A stretch of DNA of 64,000 nucleotides, taken from assembly GCA_934121905.1 (NCBI GenBank), contig CAKOVI010000004.1:46039-110038 (forward strand), in the 5' to 3' direction. Positions 982 to 62,768 of this stretch are shown here, one piece after another (positions within the stretch are counted from its first letter, which is position 1; the number at the start of each line of letters is the position of its first letter). A program made the translations under genes and the position numbers. The stretch is from an uncultured Clostridia bacterium (GTDB lineage: Bacteria > Bacillota > Clostridia > TANB77 > CAG-508). The notes below the pieces were generated by a model. The model ran no database searches. It was not told where the DNA came from and saw nothing but the letters and a program-made list of their open reading frames with translations.

Positions 982-1044
982 GAAAGGACCGTTTCTTTTT
1001 CCACTGGGACCGTTTCTTTTCGCGAAAAGAAACGGTCCTTTTGC
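982..1044. repeat. GC-rich palindromic intergenic element R1
   Basis: ggaccgtttcttttcgcgaaaagaaacggtcc (1007-1038) is a perfect palindrome, preceded by a direct half copy aaaggaccgtttcttttt. It probably also terminates dxs. Confidence 0.8.
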
Positions 1045-1053
1045 AAAAAAATA

Positions 1054-1082
1054 TTGACACATCATCATTTTTATAATATAAT
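1054..1082 (+). promoter_or_regulatory. sigma-A type promoter upstream of the regulator-suf operon
   Basis: TTGACA (1054-1059), 17-nt spacer, TATAAT (1077-1082). An inverted repeat TGTTA-N8-TAACA (1082-1099) lies just downstream as a possible operator. Confidence 0.6.
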
Positions 1083-1113
1083 GTTAGCCGAAGTTAACAA
1101 AAGGAGACATAAA

Positions 1114-1572
1114 ATGATATCAAAAGCATCAGAAGAATATTTAAAAACAATGTATGTACTGCAAATTCAAAATAAAGAAATAAGAGTAACAGACATTGCA
1201 AATCAAATGAACTTAAGTAAGCCAAGTGTAAACAAAGCCATAAATAATTTGAAAGAAAATGGGTTAGTATATTATGAGGCATATGGAAAAATAGAATTAA
1301 CAGAGCAGGGAACAGACCTAGCTAAAAAAATATTAGAAGCATATGATATATCTTATGTATTTTTTAAAGATGTAATAGGATTAGATGAGGATGCTTCAAA
1401 AAGAGAAGCAGAGAAATTAAAATTAACAATGGAGGATAATACTATAAATAACTTAGCAAAATACGTACATAAGGTATTAAATTTAAGTGATTTAAATTGT
1501 GATTATGATATCTCAAAAGAAAGATGTCGTATGTGCCAAAGAAGAACAAAAAAGTCTAATATAGAGGCATAA
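1114..1572 (+). CDS. DtxR/MntR-family metal-dependent transcriptional regulator with Cys-rich C-terminal tail
   Basis: The start is chosen at the ATG at 1114, which is 7 nt after AAGGAGA. The N-terminal block EEYLKTMYVL...RVTDIANQMNLSKPSVNKAINNLKENGLV is the DtxR-type wHTH. The tail carries C-x9-C-x2-C. Confidence 0.75.
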   Translation: MISKASEEYLKTMYVLQIQNKEIRVTDIANQMNLSKPSVNKAINNLKENGLVYYEAYGKIELTEQGTDLAKKILEAYDISYVFFKDVIGLDEDASKREAEKLKLTMEDNTINNLAKYVHKVLNLSDLNCDYDISKERCRMCQRRTKKSNIEA

Positions 1573-1600
1573 AAATAAAACAAAAAGGGAGTAAATTTAA

Positions 1601-2341
1601 ATGAGTAAAGAGCTTTTAGAAATAAATGATTTATATGTAAATGCGGGAGAAAAAGAGATTTTAAAAGGAATAAATTTAAAAATAAACAAAGGAGAAATCC
1701 ATGTAATAATGGGGCCAAATGGTTCGGGAAAAACAACAACAGCAAATGCAATATTAAACAATCCGGCTTATCATAAAGAAAATGGTTCTATTAAATTCGA
1801 AGGTGAGGATATAACAAATTTAAAAACAGATGAAATAGCTAGAAAAGGAATATTTATGTCTTTCCAATTACCAGAAGAAATCCCTGGAATAACAGTGACT
1901 AATTTCCTAAAATATGCAAAAAACAAAATAACAGGGAAGCCAATAAAAATATTTAAGTTTAAAGAAGAAGTAAAAAAACATATGGAAGAACTTCAAATGA
2001 AGCCTGAATATAGTGAAAGAAGCTTAAATGTGGGATTTTCAGGAGGAGAGAAAAAGAAAAATGAGATTCTTCAAATGCTTGTTTTAAATCCTAAACTTGC
2101 AATTTTGGACGAAACAGATTCTGGGCTAGATGTGGATGCTATTAAGACTGTTTCTAAAGGTGTGGAAATGTTTAAAAATGATGAGAATGCAGTTTTGATT
2201 ATTACTCATAATACTAAAATTTTGCATAATTTAACACCTGATTTTGTGCATATTTTGGTTGATGGTAAGATTGTTAAGACTGGAAATGCGGAGTTGGCTA
2301 AAGAAATTGAGGAAAATGGATATAGGAATTATAAAAAATAA
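1601..2341 (+). CDS. sufC: Fe-S cluster assembly ATPase SufC
   Basis: Walker A GPNGSGKTT, ABC signature FSGGEKKKNE, Walker B LAILDETDSGLD. It sits next to sufB and sufD. Confidence 0.92.
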   Translation: MSKELLEINDLYVNAGEKEILKGINLKINKGEIHVIMGPNGSGKTTTANAILNNPAYHKENGSIKFEGEDITNLKTDEIARKGIFMSFQLPEEIPGITVTNFLKYAKNKITGKPIKIFKFKEEVKKHMEELQMKPEYSERSLNVGFSGGEKKKNEILQMLVLNPKLAILDETDSGLDVDAIKTVSKGVEMFKNDENAVLIITHNTKILHNLTPDFVHILVDGKIVKTGNAELAKEIEENGYRNYKK

Positions 2342-2361
2342 ATTTCGAAAGGAATTCAAAA

Positions 2362-60759: not shown

Positions 60760-60768
60760 TAATTAAAC

Positions 60769-60888
60769 AAGGACGGTTCTTTAATGTAACAAGTAAAGTT
60801 GCAGAAGAGCCGTTTTTTTCTGAATGTGTTCCATTGGGACCGGGTCTTTTTGGTACATTTTGTAAAAAGAACCGTCCCCAATCAGAAA
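60769..60888. repeat. composite GC-rich element R9, combining an R2-type arm and an R4-type arm
   Basis: tgttccattgggaccgggtctttttggtaca plus aaaaagaaccgtccccaatcagaaa. It lies just upstream of the pyrF SD. Confidence 0.8.
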
Positions 60889-60898
60889 AAAGAAAGGA

Positions 60899-61840
60899 AT
60901 GAAAAATATGAGCCAAAATATGATGGACAACCTAATAAAAAAAATCAAAGAAAAAAATAGCCCAATAGTAATGGGGATAGACCCAAGATATGAAATGATA
61001 CCAGATATAATAAAATCTAAATATCCAAAGGATATGGCAGGTTTTGCCGAATCAGCAGTAGTATTTGCGAAACAATTAATAGATGCAACATATGACATAA
61101 TACCTGCAGTGAAACCACAACTAGCATATTTTGAAATGATGGGACCTAATGGACTAGATGCATTCCAAGAAATCGTTGATTATGCTAAATCAAAAGATTT
61201 AATAGTAATTGCAGATGCTAAAAGAGGAGATATAGGAACAACTTCACAAGGATATGCAAATACATTTTTAGGAGAAACATCATTAGATGATTATAATGAA
61301 AAAATATATGATGCAGATTTTGTAACAGTAAATCCATATATGGGAACTGACTGTGTAAAGCCATTTATAGAAGATTCTAAAAAATATGGAAAAGGTGTAT
61401 TTGTATTAGTAAAAACATCAAATAAATCATCAGGAGAACTTCAAGATTTAAGATTAGAAAACGGAAATAAAGTATATGAGCAAGTTGCAACATTAGTTGA
61501 AGAATGGGGAAAAGACTTGATAGGAGAATATGGATATAGCAGTATTTCAGCAGTAGTAGGAGCAACATATCCAGAACAACTAAAAGAAATCAGAAAATTA
61601 GCACCACATACATTTTTCTTAATTCCTGGCTATGGAGCTCAAGGAGGAAAAGCAGAAGATATAGCTTTGGGATTTGATGAGAATGGAATAGGTGGAATTG
61701 TTAATGCTTCAAGAAGTTTAATGTGTGCTTATAAATCTGATAGATGGAAAGAAATCTATACAGAAGAGCAATTCGCAGAAGCTACAAGAGCAGAGGCTTT
61801 AAGAATGAGAGAAGAACTTATGGGTGCAATTCAGAAATAG
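60899..61840 (+). CDS. pyrF: orotidine-5'-phosphate decarboxylase (long, type 2); the start is possibly the ATG at 60908
   Basis: VKPQLAYFE and ADAKRGDIGTT are the OMP decarboxylase motifs. Confidence 0.88.
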   Translation: MKNMSQNMMDNLIKKIKEKNSPIVMGIDPRYEMIPDIIKSKYPKDMAGFAESAVVFAKQLIDATYDIIPAVKPQLAYFEMMGPNGLDAFQEIVDYAKSKDLIVIADAKRGDIGTTSQGYANTFLGETSLDDYNEKIYDADFVTVNPYMGTDCVKPFIEDSKKYGKGVFVLVKTSNKSSGELQDLRLENGNKVYEQVATLVEEWGKDLIGEYGYSSISAVVGATYPEQLKEIRKLAPHTFFLIPGYGAQGGKAEDIALGFDENGIGGIVNASRSLMCAYKSDRWKEIYTEEQFAEATRAEALRMREELMGAIQK

Positions 61841-61855
61841 AAGGGAGAATATATT

Positions 61856-62650
61856 ATGTCAAAAATGCAAATACAAGCAAAATTAATAAAAAAAGAACAA
61901 TTAAAAGACGATATTTTCAAATTTAGTGTAGAAGCACAAGAAATTGTAAATATAGCAAAACCAGGTCAATTTTTAGAAATAAGAGTAACAGACCAAGTAG
62001 AGCCATTCTTAAGAAGACCAATAAGTATATATAATTTAGACAAAGAAAATGGTATTTTAGAATTTATATTCCAAGTAAAAGGAAAAGGAACAAAAATATT
62101 AGCTCAAAAACAAGAAGGAGAAATAATAGATATAATAGGACCTCTAGGAAATGGAACATTTGAATACTCTAAATACCAAAATATAGCAATAATAGGAGGA
62201 GGAATAGGAATATTCCCATTATATGAACTTGCAAAAGAAGCGAAAATTGCAGGTAAAAACGTAAATACATATTTAGGATTTAGAAACAAGGAATTTGTAA
62301 CATTAGAAGAAGAATTTAAAAAAGTATCAACATCTTTATGTTTAGCAACAGATGATGGAAGTTATGGGAAAAATGGATTTGCAATAAACTTCTTAAAAGA
62401 AGATATAGAAAATGGAAAAATAGATTCAATATTTGCATGTGGACCAATGCCAATGTTAAGAGCTGTAAAAGACTTAGCAATAGAAAAAAATATTCCATGT
62501 CAAGTTTCATTGGAGGAAAAAATGGGATGTGGAATTGGAGTATGCTTAGGTTGTGCGGTTAAGACTGCTGAAAGTTCAAGTGAGAGCCCAGAGTATAAAC
62601 ATGTTTGTAAAGCAGGACCAGTTTTTGAGGCTGGAGAAGTTGAATTTTAG
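61856..62650 (+). CDS. pyrK: dihydroorotate dehydrogenase B electron-transfer subunit
   Basis: RRPISI (FAD) and the C-terminal 2Fe-2S motif CGIGVCLGCAV...C. Confidence 0.88.
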   Translation: MSKMQIQAKLIKKEQLKDDIFKFSVEAQEIVNIAKPGQFLEIRVTDQVEPFLRRPISIYNLDKENGILEFIFQVKGKGTKILAQKQEGEIIDIIGPLGNGTFEYSKYQNIAIIGGGIGIFPLYELAKEAKIAGKNVNTYLGFRNKEFVTLEEEFKKVSTSLCLATDDGSYGKNGFAINFLKEDIENGKIDSIFACGPMPMLRAVKDLAIEKNIPCQVSLEEKMGCGIGVCLGCAVKTAESSSESPEYKHVCKAGPVFEAGEVEF

Positions 62651-62669
62651 AAAGCAAAGAAACAAGAAA

Positions 62670-62768
62670 GGACAAAAGGGACCGGGTCTTTTTTGTCCAA
62701 AAGCAAAGGCAAATATATTAGAAGAAAAATGATAAAAAAGGACAAAAAAGACCCGGTCCCTTTTGTCC
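62670..62768. repeat. GC-rich palindromic element R10 (29-nt perfect arms) between pyrK and pyrD
   Basis: ggacaaaagggaccgggtcttttttgtcc (62670-62698) is the exact reverse complement of 62740-62768. Confidence 0.9.

Follow-up and report, generated by a model that had tools for sequence, protein, structure and literature searches.

Short repeats of the repetitive extragenic palindromic (REP) and REPIN type are well studied in Proteobacteria and, to our knowledge, have hardly been described in Firmicutes. The long RNA hairpins formed by repeats of the Correia and ERIC type are substrates of RNase III. REPINs are inverted doublets of REP sequences, with conserved 16-mers and a less conserved spacer that carries compensatory changes (PMC3116915). 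The GTAG/CGTC tags have been defined, and the phyla with GTAG REPs have been listed as Proteobacteria, Cyanobacteria, Chloroflexi and the Planctomycetes-Verrucomicrobia-Chlamydiae (PVC) group (PMC3733652). In the present study, a family of GC-rich palindromic elements was analysed at ten sites, designated R1 to R10, in a 64,000-nt stretch of DNA from an uncultured Clostridia bacterium (GenBank assembly GCA_934121905.1, contig CAKOVI010000004.1, positions 46,039 to 110,038; the whole stretch is hereafter called the window). Herein, we propose, with a probability of about 0.7, that these elements belong to one family of small non-coding DNA repeats, specific to a lineage, that are mobile but non-autonomous and of the REP/REPIN kind. 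This proposal is based on the conserved core, the covarying stem, the inverted doublets, the modular clusters, the lack of target-site duplication, the restriction to a lineage and the copying of whole elements.

The repeat family and its 31-nt unit

Matches to the 16-mer core GGGACCGGTTCTTTTT with up to three mismatches were observed 23 times in the window, compared with 0.37 expected and a maximum of 2 in first-order Markov simulations. A profile hidden Markov model (HMM) trained on 110 distinct units recognised 25 units in the window at E<0.05, all of them within the ten sites of a preliminary description of this DNA and none elsewhere. Together with a position matrix of 123 non-redundant units from the window and related loci, aligned on the core, these results bear out the claim of that description that the elements form one family with a shared core, and no further site was added by the HMM to the ten originally reported. 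As had been claimed, the elements are intergenic, all ten being located between open reading frames (ORFs) within the window. Perfect inverted repeats of at least 12 bp, with at least 40% GC and loops of up to 70 nt, are represented in the 64-kb window by eight paired elements only. The long inverted repeats attributed to nearly all copies were recovered by folding in eight of the ten elements, which form near-perfect hairpins (dG -28 to -130 kcal/mol, z -4.7 to -22.6), but not in R6 (z -1.2) and R9 (z -1.8). The element sequences were found unchanged in independent assemblies from different samples, and thus the elements are not assembly artefacts; short-read metagenome contigs often end within elements, as expected for a multi-copy repeat. 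A search of Rfam 15 gave no family match at the gathering score, and at E<=5 solely sub-threshold plant miRNA hairpin models. A literature search with the exact sequence returned unrelated eukaryotic primer matches only, and a keyword search for a clostridial stem-loop repeat family or miniature inverted-repeat transposable element (MITE) returned nothing relevant.

The ten sites are listed below with corrected limits, together with a neighbouring terminator. Units are in + or - orientation, a strand is given for a site where one was assigned, RBS stands for ribosome-binding site, and L numbers denote the other loci compared.

R1, 982 to 1049: + units at 986-1000 (partial) and 997-1028 and a - unit at 1017-1049, core type GGGACCGTTTC; 9 nt past the dxs stop, followed by TTTTGC and then a TTGACA-17-TATAAT promoter; the sole copy of the ten with a terminator-like 3' T-run; a simple pair at this site in strain L310.
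R2, 4847 to 4951: +/- pair (units 4847-4879 and 4919-4951), core GGGACCGGGTC, 55-nt spacer between cores, dG -56, z -10; occupies the whole sufD-sufS spacer and ends right at the sufS GGAGG.
R3, 13014 to 13084: +/- pair (13014-13046 and 13054-13084) between minus-strand porG and porD, dG -55; a 10-nt duplicated remnant extends to about 13094.
R4, 15957 to 16012: +/- pair of the GGG(G)ACGGTTC type, closely spaced around a 4-nt loop, dG -35, z -11; in a 350-nt non-coding stretch of an accessory segment; contig L304 breaks within it.
R5, 46234 to 46329: outer GGGGACGGTTC pair (46234-46264 and 46297-46329) with a decayed inner unit (46266-46298) nested in the loop; between divergent promoters; intact equivalents of this composite in L014 and L220.
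R6, 46393 to 46424, minus strand: single complete unit with its own 4/5-bp stem in the 5' untranslated region of an acyltransferase gene, between a TTTACA-17-TATAAT promoter and the RBS; a AATGGGTC remnant follows.
R7, 49024 to 49178: two units per arm (+ + - -), 59-bp perfect stem, dG -130, z -22.6; fills the gap between two convergent genes.
R8, 58694 to 58843: two units per arm (+ + - -) around an AT-rich loop, dG -110; flanked by the tig terminator on one side and the clpP RBS on the other.
R9, 60827 to 60888: chimera, with a GGGACCGGGTC + unit at 60827-60858 joined to a GGGGACGGTTC - unit at 60857-60888; the outer pair has lost its left member by deletion; element end about 5 nt upstream of the pyrF RBS; an intact simple pair at this site in strain L220.
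clpX intrinsic terminator, 60769 to 60823, plus strand: hairpin followed by TTTTTTT; no family member (HMM E=1.1).
R10, 62670 to 62769: +/- pair with stem GGACAAAA/TTTTGTCC and a 53-nt spacer between cores, dG -55; fills the pyrK-pyrD spacer.

Several limits and assignments of the preliminary description are thereby revised. Its sites R3 and R5 stand, but the start given for R3 lies mid-core and the end within the stop codon of the neighbouring gene, and the proper extent of R5 contains the decayed inner unit. The chimeric nature of R9 holds for 60827-60888, whereas the first half of the interval then assigned to it is the clpX terminator. R6, taken for a solo half-site, is a complete single unit, and the flank of R3 reads ACATTTGG instead of ATCGG. 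The three listed sub-types accommodate R10, which has the GGGACCGGGTC core with a different flank, but not R1, which belongs to a fourth core type. As a separate observation, the clpX terminator has a 5' arm, AAGGACGGTTCTTT, that is similar to the GGGGACGGTTC core type, which may reflect chance or an old domesticated copy.

The unit comprises 31 nt, in which a variable but complementary 7-bp stem encloses a conserved 17-nt segment, TTGGGACCGGTTCTTTT, and the consensus of the 123 aligned units is TGTCCCA-TTGGGACCGGTTCTTTT-TGGGACA. The core occurs as the sub-types GGGACCGGTTC, GGGACCGGGTC, GGGGACGGTTC, GGGACCGTTTC, GGGGTCGGTTC and GGTGCCGGTTC, and the outer stem half is free to vary (TGTCCCA, TGTTCCA, GACCCA, GGGACCA, GGCACA, GTGACA, GGACAAAA and others). 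Within units, 5.03 of the 7 stem positions are complementary on average, compared with 3.18+-0.11 when the partners are shuffled. In the covariation analysis, 79.9% of the stem cells were paired versus 54.1+-1.4 in shuffles, a value reached in none of 500; 177 cells were changed on both sides versus 66.5, and the covariation score was 0.564 versus 0.179. Sliding the partner by one to three columns left 36-55% paired, and the complementarity of the flanks ends abruptly at the eighth position. The earlier statement that the flanks differ between copies and remain complementary within each copy is thus sharpened to a covarying 7-bp stem, and whole arms pair perfectly. This complementarity had been taken as an argument for selection on a hairpin. 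The complementarity is real, but its perfection between arms can reflect either a hairpin required by a mobilising enzyme or the copying of whole palindromes together with homogenisation of the arms by template switching. A structural requirement is favoured, because the covariation at the level of the unit spans many stem types. A 17-nt core that is mobile on its own and inserts into the loops of existing hairpins was considered and rejected, given that the inner stem CCA/TGG is conserved and the stems are GC-rich and family-like. The likeness of parts of the core to LexA (Cheo), CtsR, sigma-54 or parS sites was rejected by eye for unfit spacing or sequence.

The higher-order arrangement was classified at 69 non-redundant sites. 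A + unit followed by a - unit, with the GC end outward and the T-run inward, is dominant (at least 25 of 69), and the opposite order is seen at 2 of 69; single units, tandem arrays of two or three and doubled arms (R7, R8) also occur, and R5, L014 and L220 have a further unit nested, in one or the other orientation, within the loop that separates a GGGGACGGTTC pair. The spacers between paired cores fall into classes of 4-5, 13-16, 23, 30-35, 43-47 and 53-55 nt. The elements measure 56-155 bp, with an AT-rich, non-coding interior and arms of 15-60 bp that constitute terminal inverted repeats. The excess of the +- over the -+ order could indicate that the pair is the replicative unit, or that terminator-like pairs are selected against in operons.

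Very fast turnover at shared junctions

Gene junctions were compared between conspecific strains with flanks 95-99.8% identical, and the following versions were observed.

tig-clpP: R8 in the window; a GGGGTCGGTTC element with one unit per arm in L114 and L218-L221; an R10-like element in L115.
porG-porD: six different fillings in seven strains with flanks about 96% identical, namely a lone unit in + or in - orientation, pairs of three kinds, and a tandem of three units.
pyrK-pyrD: three versions among conspecific strains.
clpX-pyrF: three element versions; a 1.4-kb two-gene insert in other strains.
Downstream of pyrD: empty in the window; elements in L218 and L220.
sufD-sufS: R2 unchanged in ten near-identical strains; another type in L305 and L306.

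All six junctions compared with strains more than about 1% divergent differ in structure. At sufD-sufS, a strain with 99.0% identical flanks has a GGGGTCGGTTC element instead of R2, which replaces the last 17 codons of sufD. Very fast turnover therefore takes place at the same junctions between close strains. Conversely, the same types recur at different junctions: copies of the GGGGTCGGTTC element at tig-clpP, pyrK-pyrD and sufD-sufS of different strains share 87-93% identity, AT-rich loop included; the R10 type is found with 96% identity at two junctions (pyrK-pyrD in the window and tig-clpP in L115); a copy in another species, the metagenome-assembled genome (MAG) UMGS1925, matches R8 at 89% identity; and R2 and R9 have a 35-nt identical segment in common. 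Pairs have thus been copied to new junctions together with their AT-rich loops, as whole elements of about 60-150 nt. In the MAG CALXEV bin115, which carries the family elsewhere, the orthologous pyrK-pyrD junction is empty, a plain 20-nt spacer. The mobility or recombination suggested by the preliminary description is therefore directly demonstrated by different elements at the same junction, the same type at different junctions and an empty orthologous junction, and the comparison of orthologous intergenic regions in relatives that it had recommended revealed polymorphism in both presence and type.

No target-site duplication was found at the clean boundaries of R2, R4, R7 and R10 or at three loci that carry the GGGGTC-type element; the element boundaries also have no flanking motif in common, and no fixed 4-mer is shared by the left flanks. 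Where strains differ by indels, short direct repeats (GGGACC, CAAATGT) mark the indel ends, and fragments of other sub-types adjoin present copies (TTGTCCC beside R8, CCCAAAAGAACA in L114, AATGGGTC beside R6). Because of these repeat-bounded indels and neighbouring fragments, the data suggest serial insertion into colonised sites, followed by slippage deletions.

Two of these junctions differ in their coding content as well. In L305 (7140-7300, equivalent to window 4788-4951), SufD ends in the element-encoded peptide MGPLGSVLFGPIFEKLF and not in a LEKIEKEEVRNEISGKIDEKI-type sequence. In L114 (2433-3860) and also in L119, L219 and L221, the 1.4-kb clpX-pyrF insert replaces R9 with two unknown genes, one encoding 79 aa on the opposite strand and the other a membrane protein of 248-258 aa, and pyrF has its own promoter there.

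The preliminary description would have been abandoned had the core been confined to the window; the core is, however, present in multiple copies in at least eight other low-GC gut Clostridia MAGs (UMGS1925, UMGS1576, CALXEV bin115, CAKPDO, CAKPNI, CALXCB, CAMVKF and CALXRJ), at a density of up to 17 units in 8 kb. The species scan used one genome per GTDB species, and among the matches listed most are chance singletons in high-GC genomes. Within 80 metagenome loci retrieved via ClpP, the core was found solely in four conspecific ones; in 69 other low-GC relatives (ClpX identity of up to 85%), neither the core nor comparable GC-rich palindromes were found in the tig-clpP-clpX region, which was the region covered (1-11 kb per contig, about 480 kb in all). 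Among viral contigs, 87 of 88 matches look like chance singles and one is a true pair: positions 1-110 of L159 (IMGVR_UViG_3300045988_138308), a predicted viral contig of 27% GC, hold a genuine +/- pair directly upstream of an RBS and start codon. A BLAST search of R7 against PLSDB plasmids and GenBank phages gave no match, and a protein search with the R8-encoded peptide for genes with element-derived N-terminal extensions gave no candidates.

Genomic position and the contents of the window

Nearly all of the 69 sites lie between co-directional genes; the core edge is separated from the upstream stop codon by a median of 18 nt and from the start codon by a median of 30 nt. In short spacers between cistrons, among them those of the suf, por, tig-clpP-clpX and pyr operons, the elements take up essentially all of the space; in longer gaps, they stand right after the stop codon (R1, where a promoter follows) or right before the RBS (R6, R8 and R9, where a promoter or terminator precedes). 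Specific targeting of the RBS was considered and rejected, the spacers on the stop and start sides being similar once about 15 nt is allowed for the Shine-Dalgarno (SD) sequence and its spacing; the adjacency to the RBS mostly results from the shortness of the spacers. Nine of the ten elements have no 3' T-run, and their typical flanks, a T-run, the hairpin and an A-run, are the reverse of a terminator; in elements other than R1, A-rich sequence or an RBS follows, and most lie between cistrons. The lack of a 3' U-tract and the reversed order of the flanks predict that in-operon copies do not terminate transcription. By analogy with REP and Correia elements, such copies probably act as sites of mRNA stability or RNase III processing, and some may have been domesticated as processing sites or as the sole remaining upstream signal for genes such as clpP.

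The tig-clpP spacer differs between species. In related species (L222-L270), the tig terminator is followed by a clear sigma-A promoter for clpP; in the window (58688-58862), the element stands directly between the terminator and the clpP RBS, with no room for a promoter. R8 itself carries TTGAGT-17-TATAAT across the core end and loop. A promoter in this loop is unsupported: promoter-like matches in the region number 96 versus 106+-9 in shuffles, and the sequence is absent from the other tig-clpP element types.

The window has 28.5% GC and a strongly A-rich + strand, and segments identical or near-identical to it were found in many human-gut metagenome assemblies (Hadza and other cohorts), which makes the source an uncultured Clostridia species of the gut. 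It contains housekeeping operons of Clostridia: dxs, a DtxR-type repressor gene followed by sufCBDSU, porGDAB, cotJ, tig-clpP-clpX, and pyrFKD with carAB. A 25-kb same-strand cluster (19762-44807) has no repeat elements; it encodes several SipW-like S24/S26 signal peptidases (at 19762, 20958, 41142 and 41671), a DUF2357 protein, numerous small membrane-anchored proteins without a Pfam match and one protein of 2909 aa with no Pfam domain, and may represent a system of the secreted fibre or pilus-like kind, or else an island that was acquired recently. At 7786-8434, a gene for an MNT-like nucleotidyltransferase (Pfam Polbeta/NTP_transf_2) overlaps a small second ORF and resembles an MNT/HepT-type toxin-antitoxin pair; in L304, a HepT-like gene is called at the matching place. 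The 97-aa ORF at 16122-16415 is the C-terminal fragment of an AAA_14/DUF4143 ATPase, of which strain L302 has an intact 431-aa version, and the segment 13876-16415 is missing in several strains. Upstream of the ORF at 48060-49013, the overlapping ORFs 47207-47653 and 47607-48002 (region 47207-48002) may be one frameshifted gene. In some strains, a PDDEXK_2 gene (Rpn-type recombination-promoting nuclease or putative transposase; L298, 5489-6297) lies downstream of porB, at a place that corresponds to two unknown ORFs of the window (8666-10408), and is not flanked by repeat units.

Proposed mobility and comparison with described systems

We suggest the following scheme for the REP/REPIN-like mobility of the family. 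A trans-acting enzyme encoded elsewhere would recognise the conserved core on its stem in single-stranded DNA, by analogy with the RAYT-type HUH transposases. New copies would land preferentially in or beside resident copies, and palindrome instability, through slippage or hairpin processing, would then remove parts of them, so that colonised junctions would become hot spots. Copies within operons would be transcribed as very stable hairpins that have no 3' U-tract. By analogy, the mobiliser would most plausibly be an HUH enzyme of the RAYT type. RAYTs of group 1 have been reported in Clostridia (PMC5581495).

Several observations weigh against this proposal. A scan of the 30 unannotated ORFs of the window against Pfam revealed no mobilising gene, in agreement with the preliminary description, which had seen no transposase there; a crude HUH...Y motif scan of 718 ORFs in element-bearing loci gave one low-complexity false match; and no parent insertion sequence (IS) with matching termini was seen in roughly 400 kb of such loci. 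The GTAG/CGTC tag typical of REPs is absent: in the matrix of 123 units, neither unit end shows GTAG/CTAC, and CGTC is present only inside the stem of the GGGGACGGTTC sub-type. Parts of the REPIN literature describe REPIN populations as long-lived, vertically inherited and persisting for millions of years; unlike these, the present elements turn over between close strains. Finally, among the strains compared, neither an excision or insertion intermediate nor a clean filled-versus-empty pair with identical flanks within one species was observed, and for this reason the replacements may have occurred by ectopic recombination between resident copies rather than by true transposition. A more specific version of the proposal, to which we assign a small share of belief, is an undescribed mobile-hairpin system of Clostridia, in which a 17-nt core on a 7-bp stem of free sequence would serve for recognition and an enzyme other than a classical GTAG-dependent RAYT would bring about the movement; the system would home into colonised intercistronic spacers so efficiently as to rewrite these spacers, and occasionally gene ends, between strains more than 98% identical.

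The position of the copies in transcription units bears on two rival explanations. The stem-loop might be a cis-acting RNA motif, an operator for a global RNA-binding protein or RNase that controls the stability, processing or translation of the downstream mRNA and is selected site by site. A covarying variable stem with a conserved loop fits such a motif, as do the copies within transcription units, which often end 0-13 nt upstream of the Shine-Dalgarno sequence, the lack of a 3' U-tract in nine of ten and a bias of single units, about 10 to 4, towards the - orientation with respect to the gene that follows. We nevertheless consider it unlikely: the units occur in both orientations and mostly as symmetric pairs, the same gene has zero to four units of different sub-types in strains 96-99% identical, copies lie between convergent genes (R7) or far from any gene (R4), one overwrites a coding end, the stop and start sides of the spacer are symmetric once the RBS is allowed for, and no Rfam match exists. 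A domesticated side function may apply to some copies. Ordinary or bidirectional intrinsic terminators that share sequence by chance are hardly credible and are excluded for nine of the ten elements. Low-GC Firmicute terminators have a 3' half like the core end GGTTCTTTTT, the terminator of clpX being similar to the core, and R1 stands at an operon end before TTTTGC; however, the orientation is reversed, with the T-run inside the hairpin and a terminator-like -+ order at just 2 of 69 sites, most copies lie between cistrons of one operon (suf, por, pyr), and a terminator scan flags no whole paired element, only short sub-hairpins in R7, R9 and R10, with an overall count equal to the shuffled expectation. 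Moreover, a 16-17-nt core conserved across genes and species is no feature of gene-specific terminators, the other outcome that the preliminary description had named as fatal to its claim.

The family might also be a classical MITE, a deletion derivative of an IS with a DDE transposase mobilised via its terminal inverted repeats (TIRs), like Correia in Neisseria or RUP in the pneumococcus. The arms behave as TIRs, the size of 56-155 bp and the AT-rich, non-coding interior agree, and presence, absence and type are polymorphic between strains. Against this stand the lack of a target-site duplication at any clean boundary, a modular organisation of single 31-nt units, tandems and units nested either way, unlike a fixed TIR-loop-TIR, and the failure to see a parent IS in the element-bearing loci; we therefore regard this origin as improbable. 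Duplex-DNA sites for a chromosome-organising, uptake or repair protein, similar to parS, NBS, DNA uptake (DUS) or Chi sites and spread by selection, would account for a conserved GC-rich core at high density, and DUS-like sequences of Neisseria also occur as inverted pairs. However, no element of the window lies inside a gene, unlike uptake, Chi and NBS motifs, which are found within genes too; the covariation of the flanking stem would serve no purpose in the recognition of a duplex; and whole elements including their loops are copied, with extreme variation in copy number and type per site. This explanation is very improbable.

If the REP/REPIN reading is correct, the family offers a clean case in abundant uncultured human-gut Clostridia, with an unusually explicit unit structure and extreme strain-level turnover at fixed junctions of housekeeping operons, and the question of which enzyme moves such hairpins in Gram-positive bacteria becomes tractable with it. 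The elements are also a natural marker for strain typing and a warning for the assembly and annotation of MAGs, in which short-read assemblies break, spurious ORFs arise and gene ends are altered, as in SufD.

Described repeats share different parts of this architecture. PATE elements, derived from IS200/IS605, have similar sub-terminal hairpins at both ends, in the same orientation, and insert 3' of a fixed tetra- or pentanucleotide, whereas the present units are inverted and their left flanks have no fixed 4-mer. BOX and RUP of Streptococcus pneumoniae are intergenic, hairpin-forming repeats of a Firmicute host, and BOX is modular, with an internal module number that varies between strains; however, neither corresponds in sequence or modules, and RUP, which carries TIRs and TA duplications, is linked to IS630-Spn1. 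Correia elements (NEMIS/CREE) of Neisseria and the ERIC/IRU repeats of enterobacteria resemble the family as palindromes of 100-150 bp beside genes that are co-transcribed, form long RNA hairpins and are polymorphic between strains, but Correia has fixed 26-bp TIRs and a TA duplication, whereas the present elements are modular and have no duplication. The BIMEs of enterobacteria are likewise modular mosaics found between cistrons and in 3' regions, their palindromic units alternating in orientation and being joined by variable linkers; they differ in unit sequence and architecture. The REPIN/REP-RAYT systems of Pseudomonas fluorescens and E. coli (PMC3116915, PMC3337134) have in common with the family short, extragenic, high-copy palindromic units that form long hairpins, mostly as inverted doublets, a conserved segment of about 16 nt with a compensating remainder, singlets, clusters, the absence of target-site duplication and sites inside transcription units. 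The present family differs in having no GTAG/CGTC tag, in its AT-rich Clostridia host, in the placement of the conserved part in the "loop" of the unit with a variable stem, in much longer and perfect hairpins (up to 59 bp, with two units per arm) and in rapid turnover between strains. Thus, the family is new and undescribed, but its kind, that of REPIN/MITE-like palindromic repeats, is known.

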